This document shows, in pieces, positions 5,240 through 62,445 of a stretch of 64,000 bases of DNA. The first letter of the stretch is position 1, and every line of letters begins with the position of its first letter. The position numbers and the translations under genes are program-made. The notes under the pieces are model-generated. The model ran no database searches and was not told where the DNA came from. It worked only from the letters and a program-made list of their open reading frames with translations. The stretch comes from Stegostoma tigrinum (Eukaryota), in contig NC_081402.1 in NCBI RefSeq assembly GCF_030684315.1, positions 1,736,001 through 1,800,000 of the forward strand. Direction: 5' to 3'.

Positions 5240-8030
5240 ATTTTTAGGTGACATGGGGAGGAAGCAGTTCTCTCCACTGCTCGGTTTCTGCCTCACCTTG
5301 TAGCATGCGGCCTGGTCCCTCTCCAGATCTTTTGGTAACCTTACCTGACGTTGAAGGGGTTGGAAGGATCAGTAGGCCCAGTTTCCAAAGAACATGCCTC
5401 GATGTATCTCGGCTCCCGAACTGGTCACGTGCTCGCGATTCTGCGCTCTGGATCCGAGCAGAAAGCGTCATCCACGTACAGGGGGGCTTTGGCCCGCTGC
5501 CTGGAACAGTCGCCCCTCCCAGGCTTGCATCTTCCTCCATGGGCTCGGCAACAAACTATGCAACAAGGCGGGAGACCTTTTCCTGACTCCACAACTGATC
5601 GGAAAGCTTTCACATTCCCACCCCGTCATTAGACTGTTCGTGTGGAGCAGTTAGGTCCCGATTGCAAATTCCGTCCCCTCAGGCCCGTCTTGGAGAATGC
5701 GTCCCACATGCACGCGTAGTTGGTTTTCTGGGGTGGCCGGTATTCCTCCCAGCTTTGTTTCGCAGCGGTTTGTACAGGGGGTCGAATTCAATGTGATTGT
5801 TGACGGAGTTCTGGTTGGAACTCCGGACGTTGGACGCCTTCATGGCCGAGATCGACAAATTCTTGATCTCGGAAGGAATCGAGGGCTACGGGGAGAGTGC
5901 AGGGAAGTGGTGTTGAAATGCCCATCAGCCATGGTTTAAATGGGGGAGTGGACTTGATGGGCCGAATGGCCTTACTTCCACTCCTATGTCTTATGGTCTT
6001 ATGGAATGCCAGGCCTCCAGGAATGTCTCTGTTTGGCTTGTGCTGTTATGGATGTGTTGTTCCAGTCAAATTTGCGTCCTCCTTTGTCTGTGTATATGGA
6101 GAATTAGTTGTGTCTCTTGGTGTTCATGTATCTTTATTGCCAGTTTTCTTCCAGTTTGGCCTATGTAATGTTTCCTCTCAGTCCTTGTATGATATTTTGT
6201 ACATTACATTAGTTTTATTGGTGTTGGGTTGTAGGGTCCTTGACATTCATCAGTAGTTGTCACAGGGAAGTTATTGGTTTGTGGGCTATCTTGATAGCAA
6301 AGAGTCTGGGTAGTCTTCATAGAATCCCTACAGTGTAGGAACAGGCCCTTAAGCTCAAAAGGCCCGGACCGACCCTTGCAGCATCCCACCCAGACCCATT
6401 CCCCTATACCCCACCTAAGCTACACATCCCTGAACACTGCGGGCAATTTAGCGTGACCCATCCACCTAACTTAATCTTTGGACTGTGGGAGGAAACCTGA
6501 GCACCCGGAGGAAACCCACGCAGACATGGGGAGAACGTGCAAACTCCACGCAGACAGGGTGGGATCGAGCCTGGCTCCCTGGCACCTGTGAGGCTGCAGC
6601 GCCAATCGCTGAGCCACCGTGCCACCCCATGGTCATCTCTGACATATCCCTGATGTGTGGGTAGGGAGACTAGCGTCCTGGCCGTCGTGTGCCTTCTTGC
6701 TGCGGTCTGTCGCAGAAGTAATGGCAGACTGTGCGCTTTGGGTAGCCATCCCTCTTAAAAACTCCAGGTGAGTGATCCTGCTCCACTTTGTGCAATCACA
6801 GATTGCTGCAGTGTGCAGTGGCTCATTTCGATAACGTCTTGGAGCAGCTCCATTTGTGGGTTTTGGGGTGGTACCGGTCCCTATGTGTTGTCTTTCTGTT
6901 CATGCTGGCCTGGAGTTCCCCAGCATTCTTACATTCCACCATTATGCCTTGGAAGGGTTGTCAGTTGCTTTCTTCTTTTGTGAATTTTATCCCGGTGAGG
7001 ATGTTGTTTCTGCGTTGATGAGTTTCTTCCAGACTAGTGCGTTTGATAACCACAAAGGTGTCATCCGCATATTGGACCCAGAGTTTGGGTTGTATGGTGG
7101 GGAGCACTGACCATTCTAACCTTGGCATTACCGTTCCCAACACCAGTCTTCATGTTGGGTATCCCACTGGTGTTGTGTTCATTTGTTTAATTATACGGCC
7201 ATTGAACGTGAAGTGGATTGTGAGGCGCAGATCCACTAGTTTCAGGGTGCTGTCCTTGTTGATGCTGTCAACGTCGTGGGGTGCCTGCCATCCCGAATTG
7301 CCCAGCAGTGTAGCAGTCGGCCCTGGCTAGTCGCTGTTTATGGATGGAAACGGGGCCGCGATACCATTATCTCGTCTTCCTCTACTCTGGTGTCTTTGAT
7401 AATGTTGAGGAATTCTTGGGAGGAGTGGATGGAGTGGGCACTGCTGTCAACTAAGTATTTCAGTTTCCATTGTAGTTCTTTGACTCGTCTATATGTTACT
7501 GTAACATAAAGTGTGGGGCTGGATGAACACAGCAGGCCAAGCAGCTTCTTAGGAGCACGAAAGCTGACGTTTCGGGCCTTGACCCTTCATCCGAAAAATT
7601 GGAGTGCCTGGTAGTGAGACAATGGGTCTGAGGGGGGTCCTGGCTTGTGTACCTTAAGGAGCCCATGGAAGCAGGGTGTGCTGGATCCCTCTGGCTTCAG
7701 TTTTTGGTATTCTGTCTTGCTGACATCTCCGGAAGTGAGAGGACCTGGTTCGCTAACTGTGGTGTGGGGTCTATCACCATCTGTTGGTATGTGCTGGTAG
7801 TGCATTGGTTTTCTCGATGTATTGAGCTCTAATAAGGATTACTGTCATGCGTTCTTTGTTTAACAGTAGGATTACGATGTCCTTGTCTTTCTTGAGTCTT
7901 TCGAGGGCTTGCTTCTGGTCTGTGTTGAATGTGTTCCACTTAGCTTTTCTGACCCATGTTGGGACTGTCATCTGTCTGACGGCCTGTTGCATTTCGTCCA
8001 TGAGTCCACAACCAACAACTACCCTGCGAC
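5240..8030 (-). mobile_element. Fragmented Penelope-like (Poseidon-type) RT remnants interrupted by SINE/CR1/pLTR insertions
   Basis: QPKLWVQYADDTFVVIK (6961-7143), LYVDDAF (5425-5613), FHGLLKVHKPG (7587-7805), degenerate DKG region (7774-8001). Confidence 0.7.
6321..6628 (-). mobile_element. HE1-like tRNA-derived SINE
   Basis: tRNA-like head (GGTGGCACGGTGGCTCAG), central GGAGTTTGCACGTTCTCCCC core, CR1-like tail. Confidence 0.8.
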
Positions 8031-8034
8031 TGAC

Positions 8035-8400
8035 CCCTTACCCATCACCAATAAAACTAATGTAATATACAAAATATCATGCAAGGACAAAAACTGGCAA
8101 TAAAGATACATGAACACCAGCGAGCTACCAAGAGACACGACTAATTCTCACTGGTCTCTATACACACAGACAAAGAAGGACGCGAATTTGACAGGGACAA
8201 CACATCCATCAGAGCACAAGCCAAGCAGAGGCATGCCAGGGAATCCCTGGAGGCTTCCATCAACCAGCACATTGAATTAGACCCCGTGTACAACCACTGA
8301 GAAACAAAACTGGGAGGAATACTGGCCACACCCAGAAAACCGAGGCATATCAATGCAAACGGGACAGAACACCAATGCTCTGCCGGATGTACACGGACGA
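8035..8400 (+). mobile_element. Penelope-like GIY-YIG endonuclease remnant
   Basis: TNVIYKISCKD, EHQRATKRHD and HIELDPVY motifs. Confidence 0.6.
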
Positions 8401-8654
8401 TGTTACGTAGTGAGCCTGCAATCAAGCACACCACCGGCTCGGCGAGCAAGTCTACAACCGCAGGAAGGTCCGGCTCAGGGGGGTCGTGCCCTGAATCCTT
8501 CAGAGCTGTTGTTGTGCTCTGTTCCTGGTTCGGTCCATCGCTGCTCCCAGTAGCCCAGAGCCATTGTGCGATCGATATTCCGCGGTTCCTGACATCAGGA
8601 GGTGGGGGTTTACCTGGGGCCCTTCCTATGTATGGCATTTCCAGACTGGGGATG

Positions 8655-9040
8655 GTGTGAAGTTGCTGATTTGCTTGTTTCTGTTCAGAAGTCTCATCTC
8701 CGTCCTAGGTGACATCGTCAGTGGAGCCTCTGATGAAGCGGTGTTATTCTACTCGGCTTGGAATTTACACTGTCCGGTCCGTTATGGTGAGCATTGTAAT
8801 TTCCAGTTTTGATCTGTACAGGTTTATACATGGGGTCCAATTCGACATGTTTGTTGATCAAACTATGGGTGGAGACCCTTGTCTCTAGGAATTCCCGTGC
8901 GTGTTTATGTTCGGTTTGGGCGACTATGTTTACCTTGTCCCAGTTAAACTGATGGCCTTCGTTGTTTGATTGTACTGATATGGAGGAGTTTGAGGATATT
9001 AAGGCAATGTTGTGCCTCTTTCCTTGGTGATTTGCCACTT
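8655..9040 (-). mobile_element. Penelope-like endonuclease C-terminal remnant with decayed terminal hammerhead-like motif
   Basis: ORF 8718-9038 HQFNWDKVNIVAQ..HAREFLE..INKHVELDPMYKP; followed by CACTGACGATGTCACCTAG on the minus strand. Confidence 0.6.
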
Positions 9041-9990: not shown

Positions 9991-11554
9991 TTGAAGGGCA
10001 GATGTTATGGGAGGGTCTGAATGCTTGGACCATTCCTTGGCAATGAATCCAGAGTTATGCTTCGAAACACTGGGGACAGGTGCCACCTCATCGAAGCCAG
10101 ATTTTGACCTCAAATGGCAACATTTCAACCTCACTGTGAACTTTGCTGCTTCTGAGTCACAGCCTCTGTGACCCCCTTCTCGGCCATGGTAAGAATTGTT
10201 CTTAGTCATCTCTCTCTCTCTCTCTACCACCCTGGTTCACCTATCCTTCCTATCACATCAAGAAACACTGAACATTCAGTTCCTGCTCTTCCTCAAGCCA
10301 TGTTTTTGTCATAATTCTACTTCCATGAGGCATTCCGAGCCGACAGCTCACCAATCTTACTTGCTGTACTCTGTACCGTAACATACTCACAGTTGACCCC
10401 TTGTGTAGGATCTTGGAGCGGACAATCAGCATGTGGAATTAACTAGGGCAGAGCCTGTGAATAGCAACAAATGAGAATAGAATCTCGACAAGTGTGGAAG
10501 CAAGCCGCTCAGCCCATCGAGTCCATACCAACTCCCAAAAGAACATCTCACCAAGACCAGCCCTATCCCAGTAGCCCTGCATTTCAATAGACAATAGGTG
10601 CTGGAGTAGGCCTTTCGGCCCTTCGAGCCAGCACCACCATTCATTATGATCCCACGCCAAACCCACCCAAGCCCTCACATCCCTGGACTCTGGTAGCTTG
10701 GCCAATATATCTGAATTGCACATCTTCAGACAGTGGGAAGAAACCCCTGAGGGGGATAAGCAAACCCCACACAGACCATCACCCAAGGCTGGAACTCATC
10801 CTGGGTCCCTGGTGGTGTGAGGCAGCAGTGCTAACCGCTCATTCATTGTGCCACCCTTCGATGAGCTGTTTGAGGACCACCAAACAAAGAGGAAATGCAA
10901 GCAATGTTATAAATCAGGAAAATTGAGGCGTATGTAACAATACAATAAACATAGAGGACGACAAAATGTGAGGCTGGAGGAACACAGCAGGCCAAGCAGC
11001 ATCTCAGGAGCACAAAAGCTGACGTTTCGGGCCTGGACCCTTAGAGGATTTAGTTTACTCGTAAATCACTGTGAAGGTAATTGGCACTAATGCTATAAAG
11101 GACAAAATGCTGGAATTTATTTGAGATGGTTTTTGAGAATAATATAGTGAGAAGCAAATGAGAGACTAGGTTATTTTAGACCCATCGCTGGCCAATGAGG
11201 AAGAACTAATCATTAATCTCATTGTAAAAGGACATCTAGGAAAGAGGTGTTACCTGTGTAATGTTGTTGAGACTGGTAGACACGCATTTCTCCAAGTAGA
11301 AGCACCAGAATGGACAGCACCACCAGGACGGAAACAAGGGCCAGCCAAGGAAGAGCTGGCAAAGTGCATTTAAGGAGAGCCTTTGAGACCAGGATGAAAT
11401 GTCGGTGGGAGCAAAAGAGATTGCGATAGACCAATACTGGTCATGGTGTCTTGCTGCCTGTTGCAGAACCTAAAGAACTTACTTCAAATCTAACCTTCCT
11501 TCTGGGAATGCAGGCATCATTGGCTGGGCATGCATTTAGTGTCCATCCATTGGA

Positions 11555-12948: not shown

Positions 12949-13433
12949 TGCAATAGAGAGCTGTGGGGGCAGATCGCTTGCCTATACATAAGGCTGGGCT
13001 AGATGGACTCCTGCTCTGTTGGGGAATCAAGGATTTCAAACTTTCAATGGCAGCTCGAAGGAAAACACAAGCTCAAACATTTCCAAGGATGCTCTTTTTA
13101 TTGCCCGATATGCAATATGGACTTTTCAAATGGCTGAAATGTTTTGGAAGTTAATGACATAACAGCGGAGTGTTTGAATTTGTCAATTATTACTAAACCA
13201 AGAAACAGCTCGCAATGACATTGGGTGTAGAAATAAAAGCTAACTTTTCGTAGAATCCTCCTCGGTTGCGTCTCACTGCTGCCCTCTGTTGGATGCTCTT
13301 CCTCCTGAGAGCACCAGGCCCTCTGCAAAACATTCTCAGTTACAATGGGCAAACCAACTTCTCCCAGAACACTATAATAAAATGTGAGGCTGGATGAACA
13401 CAGCAGGCCAAGCAGCATCTCAGGAGCACAAAA

Positions 13434-13468
13434 GCTGACGTTTCGGGCCTAGACCCTTCATCAGAGAG
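13434..13468 (-). ncRNA. Minimal type I hammerhead ribozyme motif in Penelope 3' terminal repeat
   Basis: Minus strand CTGATGA-A-GGG-tctagg-CCC-GAAA-C-GTC; palindromic ACGT stem III; stem I is weak. Confidence 0.7.
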
Positions 13469-13688
13469 GGGGATGGGGGGAGGGAACTGGAATAAATAGG
13501 GAGAGAGGGGGAGGCGGACCGAAGATGGAGAGTAAAGAAGATAGGTGGAGAGGGTGTAGGTGGGGAGGTAGGGAGGGGATAGGTCAGTCCAGGGAAGACG
13601 GACAGGTCAAGGAGGTGGGATGAGGTTAGTAGGTAGCTGGGGGTGCGGCTTGGGGTGGGAGGAAGGGATGGGTGAGAGGAAGAACCGG

Positions 13689-15968
13689 TTAGGGAGGCAG
13701 AGACAGGTTGGACTGGTTTTGGGATGCAGTGGGTGGGGGGGAAGAGCTGGGCTGGTTGTGTGGTGCAGTGGGGGGAGGGGATGAACTGGGCTGGTTTAGG
13801 GATGCAGTGGGGGAAGGGGAGATTTTGAAACTGGTGAAGTCCACATTGATACCATATGGCTGCAGGGTTCCCAGGCGGAATATGAGTTGCTGTTCCTGCA
13901 ACCTTCGGGTGGCATCATTGTGGCAGTGCAGGAGGCCCATGATGGACATGTCATCAAGAGAATGGGAGGGGGAGTGGAAATGGTTTGCGACTGGGAGGTG
14001 CAGTTGTTTGTTGCGAACTGAGCGGAGGTGTTCTGCAAAGCGGTCCCCAAGCCTCCGCTTGGTTTCCCCAATGTAGGGGAAGCCGCACCGGGTACAGTGG
14101 ATGCAGTATACCACATTGGCAGATGTGCAGGTGAACCTCTGCTTAATGTGGAATGTCATCTTGGGGCCTGGGATGGGGGTGAGGGAGGAGGTGTGGGGAC
14201 AAGTGTAGCATTTCCTGCGGTTGCAGGGGAAGGTGCCGGGTGTGGTGGGGTTGGAGGGCAGTGTGGAGCGAACAAGGGAGTCACGGAGAGAGTGGTCTCT
14301 CCGGAAAGCAGACAGGGGAGGGGATGGAAAAATGTCTTGGGTGGTGGGGTCGGATTGTAAATGGCGGAAGTGTCGGAGGATAATGCGTTGTATCCGGAGG
14401 TTGGTAGGGTGGTGTGTGAGAACGAGGGGGATCCTCTTGGGGCGGTTGTGGCGGGGGCGGGGTGTGAGAGACGTGTTGCGGGAAATGCGGGAGACGCGGT
14501 CAAGGGCGTTCTCAATCACCGTGGGGGGAAAGTTGCGGTCCTTAAAGAACTTGGACATCTGGGATGTGCGGGAGTGGAATGTCTTATCGTGGGAGCAGAT
14601 GCGGCGGAGGCGGAGGAATTGGGAATAGGGGATGGAATTTTTGCAGGAGGGTGGGTGGGAGGAGGTGTATTCTAGGTAGCTGTGGGAGTCGGTGGGCTTG
14701 AAATGGACATCAGTTACAAGCTGGTTGCCTGAGATGGAGACTGAGAGGTCCAGGAAGGTGAGGGATGTGCTGGAGATGGCCCAGGTGAACTGAAGGTTGG
14801 GGTGGAAGGTGTTGGTGAAGTGGATGAACTGTTCGAGCTCCTCTGGGGAGCAAGAGGCGGCGCCGATACAGTCATCAATGTACGGGAGGAAGAGGTGGGG
14901 TTTCGGGCCTGTGTAGGTGCGGAAGATGGACTGTTCCACGTAACCTACAAAGAGGCAGGCATAGCTGGGGCCCATGCGGGTGCCCATGGCCACCCCCTTA
15001 GTCTGTAGGAAGTGGGAGGAGTCAAAAGAGAAGTTGTTGAGTGTGAGGACGAGTTCCGCTAGGCGGATGAGAGTGTCGGTGGAGGGGGCCTGGTCGGGCC
15101 TGCGGGACAGGAAGAAGCGGAGGGCCTTGAGGCCATCTCCATGCGGAATGCAGGTGTACAGGGACTGGACGTCCATGGTGAATATGAGGTGTTGGGGGCC
15201 AGGGAATTGGAAGTCCTGGAGGAGGTGGAGGGCGTGGGTGGTGTCACGGACATAGGTGGGGAGTTCCTGGACCAAAGGGGAGAAAATGGAGTCCAGATAG
15301 GTGGATATGAGTTCGGTGGGGCAGGAGCAGGCTGAGACGATGGGTCGACCAGGGCAGGCAGGTTTGTGGATTTTGGGAAGGAGATAGAAACGGGCCGTGC
15401 GGGGTTGGGGAACAATGAGGTTAGAGGCTGTGGGTGGGAGGTCCCCTGAGGTGATGAGGTCATGAATGGTGTTGGAGATGATGGTTTGGTGCTCGGGTGT
15501 GGGGTCATGATCGAGGAGGCGGTAGGAGGTGGTGTCGGAGAGTTGGCGTCTGGCCTCGGCGATGTAGAGGTCAGTACGCCATACTACCACTGCGCCACCC
15601 TTGTCTGCGGGTTTGATGGTGAGGTTGGGGTTGGAGCGGAGGGAGCGGAGGGCTGCCCGTTCTGCGGGGGAGAGGTTAGAGTGGGTGAGAGGGGTGGAGA
15701 GGTTGAGGCGGTTGATGTCTCGACGGCAGTTGGAGATGAAGAGGTCGAGGGAGGGTAGGAGGCCTGGGGGTAGTGTCCAGGAGGAGGACTTGTGTTGGAA
15801 GCGGGTGAAGGGGTCAGTGGAAGGAGGGTTGGGTTCCCGGTTGAAGAAGTAGGCATGCAGGCGAAGACGGCGGAAAAACTGCTCTATGTCCGACCGTGAC
15901 TGGTATTCGTTGATGTGTGGTTGTAGGGGGACAAAGGTGAGCCCCTTGCTCAGGACTGACCGTTCGTC
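13689..15968 (-). CDS. Penelope RT + GIY-YIG endonuclease ORF (lacks native start)
   Basis: Provided ORF 13689-15590 extends in frame upstream (DERSVLSKGLTFVP...NLTIKPADKGGAVVVW) to the insertion junction. Confidence 0.8.
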   Translation of the reverse strand, partial: DERSVLSKGLTFVPLQPHINEYQSRSDIEQFFRRLRLHAYFFNREPNPPSTDPFTRFQHKSSSWTLPPGLLPSLDLFISNCRRDINRLNLSTPLTHSNLSPAERAALRSLRSNPNLTIKPADKGGAVVVWRTDLYIAEARRQLSDTTSYRLLDHDPTPEHQTIISNTIHDLITSGDLPPTASNLIVPQPRTARFYLLPKIHKPACPGRPIVSACSCPTELISTYLDSIFSPLVQELPTYVRDTTHALHLLQDFQFPGPQHLIFTMDVQSLYTCIPHGDGLKALRFFLSRRPDQAPSTDTLIRLAELVLTLNNFSFDSSHFLQTKGVAMGTRMGPSYACLFVGYVEQSIFRTYTGPKPHLFLPYIDDCIGAASCSPEELEQFIHFTNTFHPNLQFTWAISSTSLTFLDLSVSISGNQLVTDVHFKPTDSHSYLEYTSSHPPSCKNSIPYSQFLRLRRICSHDKTFHSRTSQMSKFFKDRNFPPTVIENALDRVSRISRNTSLTPRPRHNRPKRIPLVLTHHPTNLRIQRIILRHFRHLQSDPTTQDIFPSPPLSAFRRDHSLRDSLVRSTLPSNPTTPGTFPCNRRKCYTCPHTSSLTPIPGPKMTFHIKQRFTCTSANVVYCIHCTRCGFPYIGETKRRLGDRFAEHLRSVRNKQLHLPVANHFHSPSHSLDDMSIMGLLHCHNDATRRLQEQQLIFRLGTLQPYGINVDFTSFKISPSPTASLNQPSSSPPPTAPHNQPSSSPPPTASQNQSNLSLPP

Positions 15969-16049
15969 CTATGCAAAGCCTCTTCTCCCAGAACACTCCC
16001 CGGTTGCTTCTCACTGCTGCCCTCTGTTGGATGATTTTCCTTCTGTTAG

Positions 16050-19300: not shown

Positions 19301-19310
19301 TTTAAAAAAT

Positions 19311-23748: not shown

Positions 23749-23871
23749 GGGTCTAGGCCTGAAACGTCAGCTTTTGTGCTCCTGAGATGCTGCTTGGCCT
23801 GCTGTGTTCATCCAGCTTCACACTTTGTTATTTTGGATTCTCCAGCATCTGCAGTCCCGATTATCTCAGAT
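23749..23871 (+). mobile_element. Short Penelope terminal-repeat insertion (family A) with TCAGAT target duplication
   Basis: Near-identical to 55551-55686; TCAGAT at 23743-23748 and 23866-23871. Confidence 0.75.
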
Positions 23872-24240: not shown

Positions 24241-27817
<3,577 letters not shown>

Positions 27818-27960: not shown

Positions 27961-29119
27961 CATGGAAAGGAAGGTCGCCTCGCGGCGGTGGGTGTCCATC
28001 GGAGACATCAGCAATGGGACACAGCAGGCCGGGCAGCATCAGAGGGGCAGGGAAGCTGCAGACTCGGCCTGGGACCCTCCTTCAGAAACGCTCCCGATCC
28101 GAAACTTCCGCTTTCCTGCCTCTCTGATGCTGCCCGGCCTGCTGCTCTGTTTCTCCAGCTCCACACCCTGCATCGGCAGTTTTCACTGCCACTGCAGCGA
28201 AGTTGGGTCATTTTAACGTCCCCTCGGCCTGCCCTGCCCCTTAAATATCCCGAAACCCTTCATCACCAGATTTGCAGAGTGTGGTCACTCACTTTCTACT
28301 TCCACATTGACTCTTATGCATTCGCTTGATTCTTTCCTTTTAACATTTCTCCTCCTGTTTACACTTTCAAAATCAGACTAGGAACGGTTCGTCTGCAGAT
28401 TTATTTCCGATTTCGATTTAATTTCAGCCAAATTGAAAAGCGTCCTGCTTTCTCTCCTCAGTTAGGATTGCAACACGGTCGAAAGGCCGCCCCTCATTCA
28501 TTCTTCGAAACAAAATATGGCTGGAATTTCTTCGTCGCATGCCCGTTCAAATTCCCAATGACGGTTTTTTTTTATTGGTTACTCATTTGAATGGAGGAAG
28601 GAAAGAATCAAAGGACAGTGACTTTGGTTATAAGACCCTCATCACATAAAGAGTGGCCAGAGGAGAGTTGTCTGAATATAGAGCTCGTGTAATACAAGAA
28701 CTGTCGGGCAAAAGTTGTAATGCCTGCATTCAGAAGCTGATTGCACATTATTAGGATCTGTTGCAAATCAGGTACTTTAGCAACGGTAGATTCATGAAAA
28801 ATATTAGAAATCGCACTACATCACATTACAGTCCAATAGGTTTATTTGAAAACATAAGCTTTCGGAGCGTGGCCCCTTCATCGGGTGAAGTGAGAGGAAA
28901 AACGCACAGAACACAGAATTTATAAGTAAAGACTCAAAGGGTCACGCAACTGATCAAGATTTATGAAACAAACCTAACATGGTTTTAGATCGCATCAGCT
29001 GAAGATCCAGGAGCCTGAGTTAATGCAATGTGAAGCTAGAGGAAATACAGTAAGTCAGGCAATATCAGAGGGGCAGGAGAGTCAACTTTTAGGGCCTCGT
29101 TCCTTAATCAGGAAGCCGA

Positions 29120-29900: not shown

Positions 29901-29905
29901 CTGCG

Positions 29906-29929: not shown

Positions 29930-30363
29930 CCTCTCTCAGCAACACCCACACATACACACGCTCGTGACTCTCCGGGGTGAATCTGTGCATTCTATTTTGT
30001 TCAAAAAGCACGCAAATTATCAACAGTCAGTCAACGTGGCATTTCATAAATCCCTACTTTAGAAATAAATCCAGGCTGACTCTTAACCAAATCAGCCACA
30101 GAATCTAAACAAGGCCTCACACCTAGCATGCATTGTCTGACAGAAAATTCTGCCTCTTCTTTAAGCTATTAGAACCTTCAGTCCTCTTAGGGCCCTGACT
30201 TGAAAGAAATTCGGGTATTTAGATATACGTATGAAACAATTAAAACCGTCCAACTGATTAATGTTTTAACAGCATCTTAGGTTTGCTTAGTGAATCCGCA
30301 TGGGTTATGTGACCTGTTGCTCTTTTATTTATAAATTCTGAGCCTGGCGCTGGCTCTCTCACT

Positions 30364-30402
30364 AACACCTGAAGAGGGAGCGAGGCTCCGAAAGCTCGTG
30401 TT
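30364..30402 (+). ncRNA. Minimal type I hammerhead ribozyme motif (family B Penelope end)
   Basis: AACAC-CTGAAGA-G-GGAGC-gag-GCTCC-GAAA-GCTC-GTGTT: 5-bp stem I, 5-bp stem II, palindromic AGCT stem III, intact core. Confidence 0.65.
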
Positions 30403-30989
30403 TTCAAATGAGCTTGTAGCCATGCGATTTCTGACCGGGTCCACTCCAGTCCGACACCGGCCACCTCCACATCGTGAAATGAAGTGAGCGGAGTTTGATG
30501 GGGGCTAATCCTCCATTCTCAGTTTGCTTGGTGTGTTGTTGAGCCAACAGACTGCTCCGTCAGGGTGATGCTGGGGCTCTGCTGTAGCAGGACATCCAAC
30601 TAGCAATGGGCAAAGTGACACGTGACAAGCCCTGGCGCGAAACCCATTCAGTCAATGAGACAGTAACAACGTGGGCAGCAAAGCGGCTGAGGATCAGGAG
30701 CAGGAGGATCCCAGTGGATGACCGTTTTCCAGACTGCATAGACCCTTATAGCGCAGTTCTCAAGCGGTTCCTGGAACGGTTACTGCTGCTGCATGGAGGC
30801 TGGCGCATGGAACACAGTTTTACAACGTGCAGAGGACGCACAGCCTGGAATAACGACGAAACGTGAGCTGGTTAATGTTGAATCACACAACACCAGAGAC
30901 CAGCGTTTGGAACGTGTCGGAGAGTGTCAGATGGAAATTAATGCAGAATAGTGTGAGGTCACACACTCACGGTTTCATGGGGTTGGACG

Positions 30990-37107: not shown

Positions 37108-40375
<3,268 letters not shown>

Positions 40376-40749: not shown

Positions 40750-43700
40750 GTTCATAGAGGCGTACATCGCGGAAACAGGCCCTTGGGTTCAACCTGGCCA
40801 TGACGCCCATAATCCCGAACTAAACTAGTTCCACCCTCTGTTCCTGTTCCGTGTCCCTTCAAACCTTTCCTGCTCGTGTACTTACCCAAAGGTCTTTTAA
40901 ACGTTGCCACTGTGCCCACATCTGGCACTTCCTCAGGAAGTTCATTCCTGACATTGTGTAAATAAGAAATTGCCCCTTGTGTCATTGCTTTTAGACTTCT
41001 CTCCTTTCCCCTTAAAATGTGCTCCTGGTCTTGAACACTCCCATCCTAGTGGAAAGACACTTACCACTTACTTTCTAGATCCTTCTTGATTTTATAAACT
41101 TCAATGAGGTCACCTCTCAACCAGGACCGCTGTGGCTGTGGGGAAACGGCCCCTATCTCTATACTGCACCGCACCCCTTGCAATATTCCACTCGCTTCAC
41201 CTGTCGCACCTGATCTGTTTCTGCAGAGTACGACTCTATGTGTCAAGATCCACAGGTCGCTTTGTGTCTCCAAATTCTCCAATATCGCTGTCTTTTAGCT
41301 GTCTTTGCCAAGGTGGAAGTGCTCATATTTATCCACATTATGTTCCACCTGCCAAATGTTTGCATGCTGTTTTAACCTGTTTACTGTTAATCCAATGATT
41401 GACTTGACCCACATGGAACAGTGAACGATGTTCTTCCTCATTAGAAGTATATCTCAAATTGTATTGTGTTCCCCAACATCTTTGTTTGGCAGAAAGACCT
41501 GCAGTTACCTTTCTGTATTCCTGCTTTTTGACGAGATGCGTTATATTTACAAACCATTGACATCATCCCCAGATCCCAACAGGAATGAACTAATATGATA
41601 CAAAAGCTATACTGTAAATGGCAGGTGCATTGGCATACAGAGGAATCTTGAGGTGCAAGTCCATAGTCCCCTGAAATGGAATAAGGTGGTAAAGAAGGTA
41701 TAAGGTACGATTACCTTCATCTTTCGGGGCAGTGAGTCTAAAAGCTGGCAAATCATTTTGCGCCTGTACAAAACATCTGTTCAGCCTTATCTGGATTATT
41801 TTGTATCCAGTTGTAGTCGCCATACTGTAGGAAGGACTGGGGGCTTTGGAATGGGTGCAGAATAGGTTAACCAGGATGTTGCCTGGATTGGAGTGCATCA
41901 GCTCTACAGAGAAGTTGGACAGTCTTGGATTGTTTTCTCTAGGGCATCGGAGGCTGAGGGGGTGAGCTGATGGACGTATATAACATGATAGAATATTTTC
42001 TCCCAAGGTGAGAGGAGATAGACTGAAATAAGACATGGGTCTTTGCTTGGAATGGACTTCCAGAGGTGCGGTTACAACATTTAGAAGACATTTAGATGAA
42101 TAAGAAATGTTTGAAGGAATATTGGCCAAGTGCAGGTGGGGCGAGTACAGTTGGGGTTATGGTCAGCATGGTTGGACCGAAAAGTTTCCCTACTGTATGA
42201 TTCCATCTCAGGTGAAAATGTCAAATACTAGGAGAATAGGTTTAAGGTATGAGACGAAATGTTTAAAGAATGTGCAGGAGTTCTGTTTACACAAAGGGTG
42301 TCGGGTGCTTGGAACATGCTGCCGAGGAAGAGGTGCGTACAGATATGATCGCGCTTAGAGCCATTTAGACAGATAGGAAACCGGGGGGGTGGGGTTATGG
42401 ATCATGTGCAGGAAAACTAGATTAGTTTAAAATGGAAGCCGAGAGAATGCTGTAAATCAGAAACAAAAAAAAACAGAAAATGCTGGAAAAGCCTGGCAGC
42501 TATGACAGCATCTGTGGTGGAAGAGTAACGTTTCAGTTGGTGTCACTTTTCCTCAGAATTCCCTCAATGGAGAGGGAACGGACTTTAACAGTCTGGGGAG
42601 TACGGGACGGTCAGAGAAGCAAGGTTCCGAAACTTATGAATGAATGGTAATAAGGAACCATTTCTTTCGCTCCAAACCAATGGCATTTGCCGAAGGTTCA
42701 GACTCCGGAGGCACAATTAGGACGATGGTGATGATCAAGGTCCCAATTCATTTCAGCAGAATTCCATGGATTTGGAGAGTCTTGAATGATACCATTAGAA
42801 GCAGACTGGTGTATGGTTTAGATAGAGTCATAGAGCATAACAGCAAGTCCAACCGTGCCAACCATAATCCCAACTAAACTAGTCCCACCTGCCTGCATTT
42901 GGCCCATATTCCTCCAAACGTTGCTTATTCATGCACCTGTATACATGTCTTTTTAATATTGCAACAGTATCTGCATCCATCTCTTCCTCTGGAAGTTTAT
43001 TACACACATGTACCTCTCTCTCTCTGCAAAATAAAAGCCCCATTATTTTAGTCTATCTCCTCTCACCTTAAAAATACTTCCCCTCGTCTTGAAAACCTTC
43101 ATTCCAGAGAAATGATCCATGCCATTCCCCTTATCCATGTCCCTCATGATTGTACAAACCACAACTAACCTCTGGGTGGCACGGTGGCTCAGTGGTTAGC
43201 ACTGAAGCCTCACAGCACCAAGGGCCTGTGTTCGATCCTAGCTTTGGGCTAGTGTTTGCACATTCTCCCCCAAGTCTATTTCCTCCCACACTCCAAAGAT
43301 GTGCAGGTTAGATGGATTGGCCATAGTGTCCAGGATGTGTAGGCTAAACGGATTAGCCAAGGGGAAAAAAATGTACGGTTACAGGCATAGGGTAGGGGTC
43401 TGGGTGCGATGCTCTACAGATGTGCAGTGTGTATTCGATAGGCCAAATGGCCTGCTTCCCCACTGTAGGGATTCTCCTACACTTCAGTGAACAAGGTGCC
43501 AGCCTATCCAACCTCGACCCATGACTCAGTCCCAATGCAGTCACGTTCTCTCTATAATGTAATGACCAGAACTGCATACAGTAATCCAACTGGGGTCTAG
43601 ACAAATTTCTGTACAGGTCCAACATAATCGCCTTACTCTCATAATCCATGCCTTGACTGATGAAGGCCAGTGTACTTCTTAAGCACAATATTAACTTCTT

Positions 43701-46610: not shown

Positions 46611-51878
<5,268 letters not shown>

Positions 51879-51938
51879 AATGTCTTTATATTGCCGCAGC
51901 TCCTCTCGAACTGTTGCGCATCTTTTGACGCCCGCGCC

Positions 51939-52094: not shown

Positions 52095-54264
52095 GCTGGG
52101 AGGAGTCCAAGGCAGGAAGCAAAGGCGGGGTTTGTCGCTCAGCCACTGGTTCAATGGGACGAACAAGCAGAGTTTCGCCTCGCAGAGACAGTCCTTAAGG
52201 GCCCATTTGTGGTATTCATCAGTCCGAGCCCCTTCTTCAGATCATCACCAGTCAGTTCCCTAGCTCAGTCAGTGTCATCATTCAGATCCCATTCATAAGA
52301 GACTCATCAGTCAAAATCCCTGGACAGTGACAGTCCCATCAGTCAGAATCCATTCATCAGAATTCTTTCATTCAGATTCCTTCAGCCACAAGAATCTCCT
52401 CTGTTACCTTCCTCAAAGACCTGATTGATGATCCTGCAAGAGAGCCAATATGATAGGGAGCAGGGTTTTAGAGCCGTATTTTTCAAAGGCAGCCTATAAG
52501 ACTTTTTACTGTCTCTTGTAAATATTTTGCACATGCCAGAGCCTCTAAAATGGCTCTTTTTAATGCATATACTGCGGGGAAAGCTGACACTCTGCCCCCA
52601 TCAAACTATAGGCCATTAAACTTGGAAACACCTCTACTTTGTTTCCATCTGTCAGACTCCCAAATATTAGTCATACTTGTACTGTTAACTTCAGACTTCT
52701 TTTGTTTGGATTCATTCATGGGATGTGTGTCTCACTGGCTGGGCCAGTACTTGTTGCCCATCCCCAGTTGATCTGGAGAAGGAGGTGGTAAACTGCCTTC
52801 TTGAGCCGTTGCTGTCCATGTGCTGTAGGTAGATCCACAATGTCATTAGGGAGAGGTTCCAAGATTTTGAATCAGCAGCAATAAAAGAATGGCAACATAT
52901 TTGCAAATCAGGATGATTTGTGGCTTGGAGGGGAATTTGCATGTGGTCGTGATCCCATGAATGTGCTCTCCTTGTCCTTCCTTTGAGTTAATATTATCAC
53001 AACAACGATCACAAAGGTTCTGGGGATTACTATCTCTTCAACTATCTTCATCAGATTTATTTCCGAATGGTTACTATCTGCAAACCCAACCTGTTGAATG
53101 TCATCCATTAGATTTCTACTTATAAAATGGCTATTGATCGGCTCACAATCTATCAGAAACTCTGAGTGTCATGATTTATAAATGTTTTTCCAAGATTCTT
53201 GTTCTTGTACTTTATGGAACCAAAAATATTAGGAAGCTGAAAAGATATTGGCAAATGATAATCATTGAAATGGTGGGACCTGTCAGATTTCCATTAGGAC
53301 CAACTGCACCATGAGCTGGGAACATAGAACATAGAACATTGAAAATTACAGCACAGTACAGGCCCTTCGGCCATCGATGTTGTGCTGGCCTGTCGTTCCG
53401 ATCTCAAGCCCATAAAGTGGGTTCAGAGGGAAGTGAACCTTTTGTGTTCAATCTACTTCTCAATCTGACACCTATCTTTGGCACATCTTTAAAGTCAAAA
53501 CTTGTACTTCTTCTACCATCCTTGGAACTATGGATTTGTATGCTTTACCCTTTCCTTTTAAGGGAATATGCTCTGATTGTACCTGAGCCATTCTTCTTTG
53601 AAGGAAGCATGTTATTTGCCTATAATTGTTCTTGTCAACCTTTGATTCCAATTCACTCAACCTAGATCTTTTCTTGCTTCATTGAAGTTGGCTCTCTCTC
53701 AGCTAATTATTCATTGTTCTATTAATTGTCCTTTTCTATTGATACACTAAACCTTATGAGACAATGATCACTGTTTCTCAAATGTTCTCCCACTTGCTAC
53801 TCCTTGACCTACTTTTGTCCATCTTATTGCCAAGAGCCAGGTCTAGCATTACCTCTTTTCTTCTTGAACTGGATTTGAGTTCAGATGAAGAGATGTCTTA
53901 TTGCAGTTATACAGACCCTTGATGAGACTACCGCTGGAGGATTATTGGCAGTTTTGGCTTCCCTACTTAAGGCAGGATATACTTGCTTCAAAGGGAGTGC
54001 AGCAGAGTTTACTATCAGAGCTGCTATCAGAGATGGCAAAATTGTCCTATGGGAAGAGGTTGATTTGATTTTATTCATGGGATGTAGGCATCTCTGGCTG
54101 GGTCAGCATTTATTGCCCATCCCCGATTGCCTGGAGGGGATGGTAACAGTCAACCACATTGCTATGGATCTGAAACCAGATTGGTTTTTACAACAATTAA
54201 TAGTGTTTATACAGTCACTATTGGGATAGCTTCTTCTAAATTCCAGAAATTTTTATTGCTGTAG

Positions 54265-54460
54265 AGACAGTAGGAACTGCCGATGCTGGAGAATCTGAAA
54301 TAACACTGTGTAGAGCTGAATGAACACGGCAGGCCAAGCAGCATCAGAGGAGCAGGAAAGTTTGACATTTTGGGTCAAGATCCTTCCTCAGTCAAACTTT
54401 CCTGCTCCTCTGATGCTGCTTGGCCGGCTGTGTCCATCCAGCTTAACACCGTGTTATCTT
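54265..54460. mobile_element. Inverted (hairpin) pair of Penelope terminal-repeat fragments
   Basis: ggccaagcagcatcagaggagcaggaaagtttgac ... gtcaaactttcctgctcctctgatgctgcttggcc. Confidence 0.75.
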
Positions 54461-55550
54461 ATTTTTATTGCTATGTTTGGGGTTCAAATTGGAAGATTAA
54501 TTTGGAGTTCTGGAGTACTAGTCCAGGGCCTATATTCACTAGACATTAAAAGGACGTCAGGGGATATGATTGCAATGTATAAAATTCTAACATGGTTGGA
54601 CAGAACAGGTGCAGAAAGGAAACTTTGCTTGATTGGTAAGTCTAGAACCAAGGGTCACAGTCTCAGGGTAAACTATATAGGGCTGAGAGGAGGAAATATT
54701 AAATTAAAGGGTACAGAACCTGTGGAATTCTCAATCGCAGAAGGCTGTAGAAGCCAAGTCATCGAATATATTCTAAAAAGGGTTGTTTCAGGTATTAAAG
54801 ACATCATGGGGTATGGAGAGAAAGCTGAAATGTCATTAAAATAGAGGATCAGCCATGGTCATATTAAATACTGGAGCAGGCTTGAGGGTGAATTGGTCTA
54901 TTCCTGCTGCTAATGTTTATGTTTTTATACTGCTGCAGAAAGTTTTCAACATCCCTGATGAACATTTTCCCATCACTGCCCATGACACTACAACTAGTCC
55001 AGCATACATTTAGATAATCAAAGGCACCCATTGTAACTGCCCTATAGCTTTTGCACTCATGTATGAATTTCTTGCAAGCATCTTCCTCTACATCCATTGC
55101 ACTAGCTCGTGGTCTAAAGACTACACTCAGTAAGTATGTCAGTAATGTAAGTTTGCCTTTTGTTTTGTTCATTTGCACCAGCCGAATATATTATGTCCTT
55201 GTTCCCATTGTGACATCCTTTTTCTCTAAATCTTTCCTTTGAGTTTTGCGGAAGGGTTACTGGACCCAAAATGTTAACTCTGATTTCTCTTCACAGATGG
55301 TGCCAGACTTGCCAAGCTTTTCCAGCAATTTCTGTTTTTGTCTCTTTCTCTGACAGTGAAATGTTTTCCGCAGCCAGTACCACCACCCATCCTCCTTTCC
55401 TTATCCTTCCTAAACAGGTTGTTCTCAAGAATATTTAATACCCATTCTTTGAGCCAAGTCTCTGTTGTCGCCATAATATAGTCACATATCAATCTATACC
55501 TGTAGCACACAAATGCTATTTGTCATGCATGCACAGAAACCCTGATTTAA

Positions 55551-55686
55551 GCTCTCTGATGAAGGGTCTAGGCCCGAAACGTCAGCTTTTGTGCTCCTGA
55601 GATGCTGCTTGGCCTGCTGTGTTCATCCAGCCTCACATTTTGTTATCTTGGAACTCTCCAGCATCTGCAGTTCCCATTATCTCTGA
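55551..55686 (+). mobile_element. Solo Penelope terminal repeat (family A) with intact hammerhead core and 9-bp target duplication
   Basis: CTGATGA 55556-55562, GGG/CCC stem, GAAACGTC 55576-55583; CTGATTTAA at 55542-55550 and 55683-55691. Confidence 0.85.
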
Positions 55687-56176
55687 TTTAAACTTCATGA
55701 CTTTCTCCTTTAGTCAGGCACTGGTCTTCATAGGGTTTGGAACACAGTGGGGACATTTGATGGTGATAGTGGATAGCTGGAGATTGGTGTTATAGTTTTT
55801 TTTTCCAAATGCTAGCCCTTTGACGAGGGCTTAGGTCGCAAGAACAAGTGTACAAGGGTGCTCTTCTGATGGACTGCCTGTGGTAGATGTGCTTCTGGTC
55901 CAGAAGGGGCTGCCTCAGATGAGACAGCACAGAGTGGAGCTGGAGGCAACACAGCAGGCCAGGCAACATCAGAGGAGGAGGAGAGTTGATGCTTTGGGTG
56001 GGAGACCCTTTTTCAGAAAGTGTTCCTCTAGCTCCACTCTGTGACTGAGCGGAGGAATCTGACTAATGAGGCTCTGACTGATGAGCCCCTGATGCCTGTC
56101 TCTTTGCCAGAGGAACTGCAAGGCAAGCCCGGCCTTCCTTTCAGCTTTGGGCCCCTCCCAACATCAATTGTGACGA

Positions 56177-56324
56177 GATAACAAAATGTGAGGCTGGATG
56201 AACACAGCAGGCCAAGCAGCATCTCAGGAGCACAAAAGCTGACGTTTCGGGCCTAGACCCTTCAAACAGACTCACATTTTGTTATCTTGGAATTCTCCAA
56301 CACCTGCAGTTCCCATTATCTCTG
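56177..56324. mobile_element. Penelope terminal-repeat insertion (inverted + direct pieces) with 14-bp TSD in copy 4 promoter
   Basis: ATCAATTGTGACGA at 56163-56176 and 56325-56338; single copy at the paralogous site 52081-52094. Confidence 0.85.
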
Positions 56325-56341
56325 ATCAATTGTGACGACTC

Positions 56342-56480
56342 GGCCCCGCCTCTTCCACAAAGCAGCCAATCAGCGCTGTGTAGTGTCGCTCCTTTGTTGA
56401 CGTGTGTCCAAGCAACAAAAGCCCATTGTTCTCAGCGGCCAATCAAAGCTCGAACTTGCCAAAGGCCACGCGGTATAAAT
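56342..56480 (+). promoter_or_regulatory. Core promoter of tubulin copy 4
   Basis: GC box 56342-56350, CCAAT 56366-56370 and 56439-56443, TATAAAT 56474-56480. Confidence 0.75.
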
Positions 56481-56540
56481 GGCACGGGCGTCAAAAGATG
56501 CGCAGCAGATCGAGTGGAGCCGCGGCAATAGAAAGGCATT

Positions 56541-60640
<4,100 letters not shown>

Positions 60641-61199
60641 GATTTATTAATTTAGAATGATAACAAGATTTAACTAAATTTCCTGATGTTATAAAGGTGG
60701 GGTTCTCAAGCTTAACTTAATTTTGCATGCACATTATAGATTATAATAAAGAAAACACATGGATTTGGAAATCGTTTTGCAATGTAGTTTGTTTACAAGA
60801 CAACAGAGGATGGGAAACATCATTTGGATGACACCTTTCATAACACACAGGTTTCAGGTTGTAGCCACTTTTGCAGAAACAGCAACACACTCATCAAACA
60901 ATCTGAAACAATAAATTGATAATCGTCAGATCCTTGGTTATTTTTGTTTTGTGATCTGGATTCAAGGGATTAATTTTCACCAGGATGCTGTGGAAATACC
61001 CTTCTGTTCTTGAAGTGCTGTGGAATCTTTTGTATTCACTATTAAAGCAGAAGAGCAATTGAAAGTTGCTAGCCAGGCAGGAAAGAAAAGTTGATCGCCA
61101 ATCACATCAGCCATCGTCTTAAGCAAGTAGACAGTATCCTGGGCTTTATTAATATGGGCAAAGAGTTTTTTGAACTTGCATGAAATTAAATAAAACAAC

Positions 61200-61400
61200 T
61201 GAAGATGCTTGATTTCTGAAACAAATAAAAAGCAAATTGCTGGAGGAACTCCTCAGCTGTAGTGAGGAAAAGTGTTAATGTTTCAAGTCCAGTGACCCTC
61301 CTTCAGAACTGAAGGGTCAATGGACTTGAAATGTTGAAACTGTTTTTTTTTCTTTCCACAAATGCTGCCAGCTGAGCTTCTCCACTAATTTCTGTCGCTG
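61200..61400. mobile_element. Inverted pair of decayed Penelope ends (family C)
   Basis: tttcaagtccagtgaccctccttcag-aa-ctgaagggtcaatggacttgaaa hairpin. Confidence 0.6.
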
Positions 61401-62294
61401 AGTTCATTCAGCCTCAGCTGGGGTATTACATTCCAGTGCTAGTCACTATACCCCAGGAAGGGATGGAGAACTTCACATACAGAGATAGGCTAGGAAAAAC
61501 TAGGGCTCCTTTCCTTGGAGAAGAGAAGGCTGAGAGGAGAGTTTCTTTTGGATGGATTCAAAGTCACAAGGGACATAGGCAGTGGGGTTGGGGGGAGGAG
61601 ATCTGTTCCCATTAGTGGATGGATTGAGAAATAAGTGCAGATATGAAATCATTGGCAAAAGTTAGGTCCAACTGCAAAGGAAATTAGACTGGTCTCTGCA
61701 AAGGAAGAATATACAGGGTTATGGGGGGAAAATGTGGTGGAAAGACATTAAATGAAATGTTCATTGTAAAGAACACCTGAAAATCTTCTGCCAGTATCTA
61801 GTAAACAGGTAATAAGTGGTAAGTAGGACCTATTGTAAAAGAAGAAGTCAATTTTTATATCCAAGAGAGTAGTCTACAATACTTTGAATACTTGGTATGT
61901 GTTTACTGTAAATATAGATAGAAGAAGAGTGGCAGAATTTGTGTTGGAGTGGAAATTGATACGGTGTAGTGAAAAGGCTGGCTACGATTATACTGGAGAA
62001 GCTGTCTGGTCCACAGAGCTTGCATCTCAGGTTGGTAGACAAAACGGGGTTGGGGTTAGGTGGGGAGATGGTGCCATGATCTTCCAAACATCCCTAGCCA
62101 GACGATAAATCAAGTCTTAATATCACTGGACTCCTGAAACCAGGACGATGTTTTGCGGATGTGAGCTTGAATCCCATTGTGGCAGATGCTAAAATTTGAA
62201 TTCAGTAAAATTGTAAAGAGAGAGGTGGCTTTATGGCAACGATGTAACCACTGCTGATGGTGGTAAAAAGCCATCTAGTTCACCATTGTCACCT

Positions 62295-62445
62295 TCTGAG
62301 GAAGGGTCACTGGACCCAAAATGTTAACTCTATTTTCCTTAACTCTATTTTCCTTCACAGATGTTACCAGACCCACTGAGTTTTTCCAGCAATTTTGTGT
62401 TCGTTCCTGATTTACAGCATCCACAGTACTATTGGTTTTTATTTT
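62295..62445 (+). mobile_element. Decayed Penelope end (family C) with hammerhead relic
   Basis: CTGAGGA-A-GGGTC-actg-GACCC-AAAATGTT (CpG-decayed GAAACGTT); internal 15-bp tandem duplication. Confidence 0.6.

Follow-up and report, generated by a model that had tools for sequence, protein, structure and literature searches.

Short repeats carrying the core of a minimal hammerhead ribozyme are scattered over the window, the whole stretch of 64,000 nucleotides of shark DNA that was analysed, which raises the question of whether they form a mobile ribozyme unit of their own or are the remains of longer elements. From our analyses, we conclude that they are real, mostly dead end-pieces of known Penelope-like elements, and probably by-products rather than a new ribozyme element. 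The available text of Cervera and De la Pena (2014, PMC4209133) already reports dispersed minimal hammerheads; this kind of repeat is known, and the remaining value of the locus is mechanistic.

Repeats and their lineages

Searches with nhmmer, using references cut from the window, matched all 19 intervals listed in a preliminary description of the sequence (family A 6/6, its older relatives 4/4, B 3/3, C 4/4, D 2/2), and the reversed window gave zero matches at E ≤ 1. The listed elements are therefore all genuine repeats. Families A and C cross-match each other (nhmmer E 8e-5 to 2e-3), so that the lineages number three (A/C, B and D) and not about four as first proposed; by sequence comparison, family C is an older relative of A. 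Metagenome and viral contigs contained no match to the exact 28-base pattern of family A.

Description of the parent element of family A

The following features belong to the only long family A copy in the window.

13374..15981, minus strand: 5'-truncated Neptune-type Penelope-like element, the family A parent type, with homologues found.
13358-13373 and 15982-15997: 16-bp target duplication of this element.
13689..15968, minus strand: stop-free frame of 759 aa, with reverse transcriptase (YIDD), Cx4Cx2C linker and GIY-YIG endonuclease.
13435..13466, minus strand: the intact family A hammerhead, of minimal type I, with C3 = 13464, a stem I of only 2 bp and the cut predicted between 13437 and 13436.

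The element reaches 15981, beyond the end at 15970 given for it earlier. Compared with full-length relatives of 890-950 aa, the frame lacks about 130-190 N-terminal residues, and it is 94% identical to a protein labelled as zebra shark. Its matches to RVT_1 (E 3e-4) and GIY-YIG (E 2e-3) both lie under the Pfam cut-offs, while a relative 50% identical to it passes both. The single ORF has the order expected of Neptune-clade EN+ elements, reverse transcriptase followed by a C-terminal GIY-YIG domain, and the linker between them, CNRRKCYTC, matches the CX2-5CxxC pattern as defined in PMC8557442. The terminal features of that clade are also present, namely a hammerhead in the terminal repeat, an optional tail, an inverted 5' arm and a target duplication, and relatives of the element carry the same hammerhead motif about 100-140 nt past the ORF. 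Positions 55552-55646 differ from the element's end at 1/95 positions. On this sequence evidence, family A represents the 3' module of the Neptune-type element (13374-15981), as the preliminary description had held, and the identity of the repeats as minimal hammerheads of Penelope pseudo-LTRs is upheld.

Description of the family A copies

Positions are numbered from the first core base of the hammerhead (C3), the predicted cut site being +28.

7504..7594, minus strand: A stub, start -1 to +2, core U4 changed, end +89; within a family D remnant.
10961..11042, minus strand: A stub, start +6, without core start, end +87; its 7-bp flanking repeat is at chance level.
23749..23871, plus strand: A stub with tail, +8 to +131, without core start.
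55552..55687, plus strand: A stub with tail, -4 to +131, intact hammerhead, C3 = 55556; probable target duplication of 9-12 bp.
56177..56324: two-armed head-to-head A insert, left arm +4 to +92 on the minus strand, right arm about +75 to +131 on the plus strand.
54263..54460: older insert with two arms, 0 to +128 (left) and +25 to +93 (right), a 12-bp target duplication and a core that has decayed at CpG sites.
28012..28190: older insert, also two-armed, with its centre at the 5' edge of the hammerhead and its left arm starting at -1; core dead.
55922..56045: older insert, left arm from about -3 and a short inverted right arm; core dead.
28996..29113, minus strand: older A/C-type stub; core dead.

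Measured against the copy at 55551, the left arm at 56177 has 0/87 differences and the long element 1/91, and the differences of the other copies are almost all private.

Description of the copies of families B, C and D

30267..30475, plus strand: B 3' fragment with an intact minimal hammerhead at 30364-30402, 5-bp stem I, C3 = 30369.
28826..28987, minus strand: B fragment, start about -100, core U4 changed.
51487..51616, plus strand: B stub, start about -6; core dead.
62294..62444, plus strand: C stub, start about -2; G12 and ACGT lost through CpG-type changes.
55246..55345, plus strand: C stub; core dead.
42444..42558, minus strand: C stub; both core boxes kept, stem II broken.
61197..61416: C two-armed head-to-head insert, arms 61197-61307 (minus strand) and 61311-61416 (plus strand), centred on the hammerhead's 5' edge.
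25745..26170, plus strand: D 3' fragment, an endonuclease-like coding tail followed by a pair of decayed hammerhead units, which lie 67 bp apart and of which the second starts at +1.
8560..8963, minus strand: D terminal repeat whose hammerhead (C3 = 8721) has decayed, at the head of a decayed element reaching to about 5700.

The description of the repeats as solo units of about 100-200 bp fails for both D copies and two of the three B copies, which are longer fragments. The D copies at 8660 and 26020 share 250-290 bases upstream of the motif, inside longer decayed remnants, and the B copies at 28830 and 30364 share about 100; the B fragment at 30267..30475 includes at least 100 bases of upstream element sequence. 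A search of the family D coding remnants against Pfam and a protein database returned nothing significant, and the remnant has a weak reverse transcriptase match at 6856-7257 (E 0.003). Its translations carry motifs reminiscent of the Penelope/Poseidon clade, in which reverse transcriptase and GIY-YIG occur without the linker and to which family D may belong.

State of the hammerhead motif

A strict minimal-hammerhead descriptor found 3 sites in the window (13464 on the minus strand, 55556 and 30369 on the plus strand); the reversed window and each of 30 shuffles gave 0. The same three sites have the features of the minimal type I motif (CUGANGA...GAAA...UH, an extra base after A9, G10.1-C11.1), which 16/19 intervals lack. 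The core arrangement had been ascribed to all elements, in intact or decayed form; both core boxes together with a paired stem II are kept in only 3/19 intervals. A fourth (42556, minus strand) keeps both boxes but its stem II is broken, the core start is missing from three young A copies (10961, 23749 and 56177), and the remainder carry core mutations. Rfam hammerhead families gave no match at E ≤ 10 in the window. Two miRNA-like Rfam matches, at 28021-28146 and 54320-54437, proved to be fold-back inserts.

The stem II pairings quoted earlier are all present in the sequence. In a covariation test over stems I and II of 16 sequences, 77% of cells were paired, with 46 double changes, and 0/500 shuffles scored as high. 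This set comprised 6 sequences from the window and 10 loci chosen by a stem II filter, so only the covariation of stem I, whose first two pairs are each kept in 14/16 sequences, is independent. When two cores were cofolded in a model, they paired through stems I-II into inactive duplexes, a prediction that neither shows nor excludes dimer activity.

Ends of the copies

Five of the seven young A arms start within -4 to +8 of C3. Under an exponential-stop model of random truncation, this clustering had P<1e-5 (no more than 6e-6 for any of the 11 mean lengths tried), the 13-nt window of the test having been chosen post hoc with the data already seen. In four older two-armed inserts, an arm begins within -4 to 0. 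Edge starts also occur in unrelated families with differing upstream sequence, namely D 26092, B 51490, the related invertebrate loci L008, L009 and L026, and family C, for which, as for the older single-arm copies, upstream limits were judged without a parent element of their own. The 3' ends fall into two groups, with 5 arms ending at +87 to +93 and 4 at +128 to +131, the difference being the optional tail already known from Penelope elements. The sequences upstream of 8 stubs are similar neither to one another nor to the UTR of the element (scores 16-27, with a null 95th percentile of 28). Extensions of the copies at 23749 (to -29) and 29030 (to -65) by local alignment were rejected as low-identity run-on, in agreement with the flank test.

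The sequencing runs point to the same edge. In contig run X1, possibly the window's own source sample, the best-supported 5'-side loose end among those listed was 13465 (-1), with 602 records and an agreement of 0.37, i.e. with varied flanks. In the raw reads of X23, a run biased by bisulfite conversion, 13463 forms one side of both opposite-strand joints listed within the module, which are covered by 350 and 227 reads with 127 and 121 starts. Across the edge, summed contig depth, which is not copy number, falls by a factor of about 4-5 in X1, X5 and X9; in the smaller contig runs X5 and X9, 13465 was not among the loose ends listed (24 of 1725 rows). The X23 depth was dropped as a test of this step because of strand-dependent under-mapping, C-to-T reads being under-mapped on the module and G-to-A reads upstream of it. 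Among the invertebrate relatives, three inserts (L008, L009 and L026) have an arm at the edge, while most extra arms are off-edge; about 10 others start at -33 to -61, at -222 to -246, or beyond -400. A reading of L026 as a full-length copy starting at the edge was rejected, its fold-back being of a different family from the motif that follows its ORF.

The 5' ends are thus non-random, as had been anticipated, while the notion of a ribozyme-bounded unit does not hold. The stub starts lie 20-32 nt upstream of the predicted cut site, and starts at -4 to +8 compared with +28 mean that the stubs are not cleavage products. An earlier proposal was to seek support for such a unit in a peak of 5' ends just upstream of CTGATGA; that test is mis-aimed, since a ribozyme-bounded RNA would start right after the GUC cut (+28), and a peak at CUGAUGA implies an uncut template.

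Target duplications and two-armed inserts

Target duplications are clearly above chance at the long element (16 bp), 56177 (14 bp) and 54265 (12 bp); in a random-interval null, 5/300 reach 9 bases and 0/300 reach 12. That of 55551 is borderline, with 9 exact bases or 12 with one mismatch, and the 6-7 bp repeats found at other copies by a loose search are at chance level. The suggestion that some solo units have their own target duplications therefore stands for 56177 and 54265 and, with reserve, for 55551. The 14-bp duplication at 56177 (56163-56176 and 56325-56338) is proven by the empty paralogous site, in a tubulin promoter near 52070-52082. The tubulin paralogues offered no clean empty site for 23749 or 28015. 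In five of the inserts, two arms are joined head to head, both 3' ends pointing outward.

Origin of the short copies

We consider it fairly probable that the short copies are separately inserted, mostly dead Penelope end modules, produced when the RT-endonuclease copies the 5' repeat of uncut RNA and runs off at its edge. The protein would start copying at an internal site, +90 or +130, in the 5' repeat of its own uncut RNA, and would likely run off the RNA 5' end at the front edge of the hammerhead. Most copies begin at this edge, likely because the copied RNA begins there; judging from the DNA, the RNA would physically begin at about C3. Both nicked DNA ends may be primed, the two cDNAs joining through 1-2 bases of microhomology to give two-armed inserts, and the lone hammerheads would then be inert in place and decay neutrally. 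In PAc, a Poseidon element of Anolis, two internal reverse transcription starts set the tail, both strands are extended and mainly uncut RNA serves as template, according to the available text of Frangieh et al. (2024, PMC11167929). Transcription is known to start inside the pseudo-LTR (PMC2377424). Against this reading, two of the three B copies extend upstream. A start at the edge also departs from the layout known in D. virilis, where the start site is found 46 + 75 nt upstream of the hammerhead region (PMC2377424 and the available part of PMC4209133).

The same by-product origin could be combined with a fixed end that is set after transcription, by 5'-to-3' exonuclease trimming to, or a reverse transcriptase stop at, a protein-bound hammerhead or C3-based hairpin; we regard this as possible, if rather unlikely. 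The predicted family A fold pairs C3-G8 with CGUCAG across the cut site in a hairpin that starts exactly at C3, with a modelled energy of -11.4 kcal/mol compared with +1.7 for the monomeric hammerhead register. Edge starts in unrelated families with different upstream sequence also agree with it, and the Poseidon protein assists its own hammerhead in the available text of PMC11167929, and so likely contacts this region. However, a reverse transcriptase, which moves 3' to 5', would presumably pause where it enters the hairpin and not where it leaves it, and the single-strand folds do not surpass those of shuffles (z 0.67 for the family A module; -0.55, -0.64, -1.39 and 0.35).

Returning to copying that runs off uncut RNA, a more far-reaching version of it seems doubtful to us: the front edge would be the 5' end of the shark Neptune RNA, and hundreds of thousands of 90-135 bp stubs would be the Penelope equivalent of strong-stop cDNA, inserted directly into the genome; a few would have run off at the cut site and jumped templates, so preserving in DNA a trace of cleavage in vivo, and some fold-backs would now be self-spreading non-autonomous units.

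It is improbable that the module is a non-autonomous, SINE- or retrozyme-like RNA, expressed from stub loci, processed or circularised by the hammerhead and mobilised in trans by the Neptune protein, one of two origins first proposed. Fixed ends, own target duplications, a 5 to 1 ratio of stubs to long copies in the window and identical fold-back joints recurring in >120 read starts would suit it, as would the descent of retrozymes from pseudo-LTRs (bioRxiv 10.64898/2026.07.22.740005). Two joints in X1 (depth 285 and 204) even link the tail to 13436, the predicted cut site, with 1-2 bases of ambiguity, but they are tiny next to the module depth of 1e7, and the usual starts lie upstream of the cut. 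The window contains no tandem array of the module, the nearest same-strand A copies being kilobases apart, and no two or more consecutive units with complete hammerheads; its only tandem pair (26026/26093, 67 bp apart) has two dead cores. Pol III A and B boxes, scanned with a consensus, are absent from the A, B and C modules, and D has no B box, whereas the window's SINE copies show both boxes in the same scan. ARAGORN found 0 genes in the window. A small sample of five stubs and one long copy revealed no stub-specific variants, and 16/19 intervals have no working core.

Solo pseudo-LTRs formed by recombination between the two repeats of full-length inserts are very improbable here. Such recombination predicts one repeat within one target duplication, with fixed ends, and has been held partly responsible, with deletion, for the solo pLTRs of Adineta vaga (PMC3846280), but it leaves the five head-to-head inserts and the starts at +4, +6 and +8 unexplained, it would have only 90-130 bp of homology to act on, and the empty site at 56177 shows a two-armed insert without any trace of an element body. 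Ordinary, randomly 5'-truncated debris is scarcely credible: heavy 5' truncation is known for Penelope-like insertions (PMC8557442) and some arms start elsewhere (+25, about +75, -100), but the clustering test and the read junctions reject random stops for family A, so that extreme 5' truncation, the other origin first proposed, is right in kind and wrong as a random process.

Relation to known systems

The motif resembles the minimal hammerheads of Cervera 2014, in the available text of which (PMC4209133) we find the CUGANGA core, the extra base between A9 and 10.1, G10.1-C11.1, a palindromic 15.2-16.2 and a short stem I. Copies there number thousands per genome, most of them single and attributed to truncation of the elements, with opposite-strand pairs 100-700 bp apart, and the motif occurs in fish Neptune, Poseidon and Xena elements. 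Family A differs in a stem I of only 2 bp and a stem II of 4-5 bp, and that text neither names sharks nor describes fixed 5' ends at the motif edge. The literature searched yielded no description of a fixed 5' edge at the hammerhead.

EN+ Neptune-clade elements (Craig et al. 2021, PMC8557442; Arkhipova et al. 2013, PMC3846280) share the reverse transcriptase, Zn-finger-like linker and C-terminal GIY-YIG domain, heavy 5' truncation, an inverted 5' copy, an optional 30-40 bp tail at one end, target duplications of 8-10 bp or longer and solo pLTRs; most inserts here differ in comprising nothing but the 90-135 bp module and in having a preferred 5' end. PAc belongs to another clade and starts 111-118 nt into the ORF, and the available text (PMC11167929) reports no RNA ends at the cut site in that system and does not discuss the 5' ends of genomic copies. 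Animal non-LTR retrozymes (Cervera and De la Pena 2020, PMC7229834; bioRxiv 10.64898/2026.07.22.740005) likewise have a type I hammerhead, pseudo-LTR ancestry and dispersed monomers, and one chondrichthyan has them, with a mean of 363 bp; they are defined by tandem complete-hammerhead units of 150-450 bp with a canonical ribozyme, of which the window has none, and by circular RNA.

The repeats bear on two open questions about this class of elements, the formation of pseudo-LTRs and the role of the Penelope hammerhead. Both become testable in a family that is young and very abundant, includes two-armed inserts, and has two fixed 3' ends and one fixed 5' end. The present results argue that cleavage is rarely part of the insertion path, matching the in vitro result for Poseidon.

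Repeats and hammerhead motif

All 19 intervals assigned in the preliminary description to families A, B, C and D, groups of short repeats carrying a minimal hammerhead motif or its decayed form, proved to be true repeats, and the reversed window gave no hits. They are genuine repeats of a known kind and have one feature that is not random, a preferred 5' end. Minimal hammerheads are fewer than described; a strict descriptor matched three sites in the window, against zero in 30 shuffles, and the remaining 16 intervals either have no core start or are altered in the core or a stem, frequently by CpG-type changes (G12 to A, ACGT to ATGT), as would be expected under neutral decay. The proposed grouping was also revised: A and C cross-match and thus form one lineage, D copies are ends of longer remnants rather than short solo units, and two of the three B copies, likewise described as solo, carry about 100 upstream bases. 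A further family B piece at 34658-34715 (+) consists of the 3' part only, without hammerhead.

The suggested covariation was borne out. In 16 aligned motifs, 6 taken from the window and 10 from loci of invertebrate type, 77% of cells are paired and both sides are changed in 46, values as high being reached by 0 of 500 shuffles. Stem I, not used for selecting motifs, has its first and its second pair each conserved in 14 of the 16 sequences. With pairing and double changes above the shuffles and the stem I pairs kept, we conclude from these alignments that the motif is a real structure under selection in the lineage. Across 80 related loci, 26 sites fit the descriptor, versus 2 in reversed controls.

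Coding element and genomic setting

An alpha-tubulin gene cluster lies among the repeats. We take the name alpha-tubulin from translation of its four paralogues, which lie in two orientations, have third exons 94-96% identical, and have duplicated promoters (CCAAT and TATA boxes). The 300-bp SINE copies resemble the shark HE1 family.

Other features in the window
5700-8990 (-), decayed second Penelope-type element (family D)
24200-27230 (-), alpha-tubulin-like paralogue
37070-39650 (-), alpha-tubulin-like paralogue
46570-50300 (+), alpha-tubulin-like paralogue
57075-60680 (+), alpha-tubulin-like paralogue
51779-52132 (-), tubulin-type promoter copy, 88% like 56325-56640
6319-6625, 12639-12948, 19309-19624, 39889-40196, 43174-43475, about five copies of a 300-bp SINE with Pol III boxes

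The family D element contains an internal inverted piece (8030-8460) and a further dead hammerhead at 8394 (+), and is interrupted by a family A stub (a 90-135 bp copy of the Penelope-like 3' module) and a SINE.

The long element (13374-15981) is 5'-truncated and flanked by a 16-bp target duplication. Its 759-aa open frame (13689-15968, minus) encodes an RT and a GIY-YIG domain joined by a Cx4Cx2C linker, which is the arrangement that PMC8557442 defines as Neptune. The closest named relatives are carpet shark proteins (94% over 420 aa, Stegostoma-labelled; 88%, Rhincodon; 77%, Chiloscyllium). Although its frame is open, this copy is probably inactive. Its RT motif at 14898-14900 (-) reads LPYIDD; R or K precedes Y/F-IDD in 15/15 aligned relatives. 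An older 64-bp direct repeat (84%; 13244-13307 and 15982-16045) in the surrounding host DNA is separate from the target duplication.

Target sites and copy ends

Positions are given relative to C3, the base with which CUGAUGA opens (window positions 13464 on the minus and 55556 on the plus strand) and which marks the hammerhead edge; the predicted cut lies between +27 and +28. The insert at 56177 has a 14-bp duplication, and a paralogous tubulin promoter has that sequence once, without the insert; it therefore represents one genuine insertion event of a two-armed unit whose 3' ends both face outward. The insert (56163-56338) lies just ahead of the CCAAT boxes of one tubulin paralogue, some 140-300 bases upstream of that gene's TATA box, and its empty site is at 52070-52082 in another paralogous promoter. 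The copy at 54265 has a 12-bp target duplication and that of 55551 is borderline; shorter flanking repeats at other copies are at chance level.

The 3' ends fall into two groups, +87 to +93 (five arms) and +128 to +131 (four arms); a further four, all older, stop short of these positions or could not be traced. These groups match the optional 30-40 bp tail of Penelope-like elements, tied to two internal RT start sites by Frangieh et al. (PMC11167929). Only one of the two arms carries the tail in both 56177 and 54265.

The 5' ends of family A are concentrated at the hammerhead edge: the seven young arms in the window start at -4, -1 (or +2), +4, +6, +8, about +75 and -2517. If stops were exponentially distributed, at least five of seven starts would fall within the 13 nt from -4 to +8 with a probability of at most 6e-6 for any of 11 mean lengths; this 13-nt interval was picked post hoc, and a 15-fold correction would not rescue random stopping. 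In four older two-armed inserts an arm begins between -4 and 0, and the second unit of a 67-bp D tandem begins at +1. None of the copy starts examined in the window falls at +28; the right arm of 54265 comes closest, retaining 2-3 bases upstream of the cut.

Sequencing reads

Four runs (of 24 listed) were compared over 13290-13890; the junction evidence comes from the 24 of 1725 loose-end rows and 15 of 495 joints listed. In X1, which may be the source sample of the window, the best supported 5'-side loose end among those listed is 13465 (-1; 602 records, unrelated flanks); this end is absent from those listed for X5 and X9. Summed contig depth, which is not copy number, falls 4-5 fold across the hammerhead edge in X1, X5 and X9. 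Among the joints listed, raw bisulfite reads of X23 contain opposite-strand joints from 13447 to 13463 (350 reads) and 13453 to 13463 (227 reads), which we read as head-to-head inserts in which one of the arms ends at C3/U4, with microhomology of 1-2 bases. For a genome assumed to be 3-4 Gb, the upstream depth (about 25,000, from 1.9 billion letters) would roughly correspond to 1e5 UTR-bearing copies; six A copies in 64 kb extrapolate, also roughly, to about 3e5.

Origin of the stubs

The stubs are somewhat more probably than otherwise copies whose synthesis was primed on uncut element RNA, within its 5' repeat, at +90 or +130. The protein would nick DNA, copying would run off the RNA 5' end at the hammerhead edge, and priming from both DNA ends would give head-to-head pairs. 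We infer an RNA start at that edge; Schostak et al. 2008 (PMC2377424) place the start site inside the pseudo-LTR. Against this reading stand two head-to-tail joints in X1 from 13436 to 13374 (depth 285 and 204), which link the tail to the predicted cut site within 1-2 bases; they may stem from a local 68-bp duplication or from rare run-off at a cleaved end, in which case they could be a trace of cleavage in vivo.

A close rival, trimming or stopping at a protein-bound motif, is in keeping with the predicted family A hairpin, which starts exactly at C3, and we regard it as possible but rather unlikely. The retrozyme- or SINE-like non-autonomous unit proposed earlier for the solo copies is improbable, failing on the lack of tandem arrays in the window, of Pol III boxes and of stub-specific variants, and on the position of the start (retrozyme definitions from PMC7229834 and bioRxiv 10.64898/2026.07.22.740005). 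The supplements of the latter list chondrichthyan families and may include these.

Cervera and De la Peña 2014 (PMC4209133) report the same motifs, their low activity as dimers, pairs on opposite strands, and thousands of single copies that they attribute to truncated elements, and Arkhipova et al. 2013 (PMC3846280) report inverted pLTRs, head-to-head palindromes and solo pLTRs. In the literature searched, as far as its text was available and with Repbase, Dfam and subscription papers outside its scope, we found no account of these shark families or of a fixed 5' end at the edge of the hammerhead.

Invertebrate relatives have an arm at the edge in only three inserts and about ten extra arms begin further upstream, so the edge-start rule is not general. 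The extra arms in Neptune-like relatives seem to favour other fixed 5' ends, near -60 (L027, L060, L063) and at -222 to -246 (L034, L051, L053). Two further Neptune-like loci (L019, L021) have a hammerhead upstream of the ORF in 3.7-3.8 kb units with repeating ends, suggesting tandem arrays.
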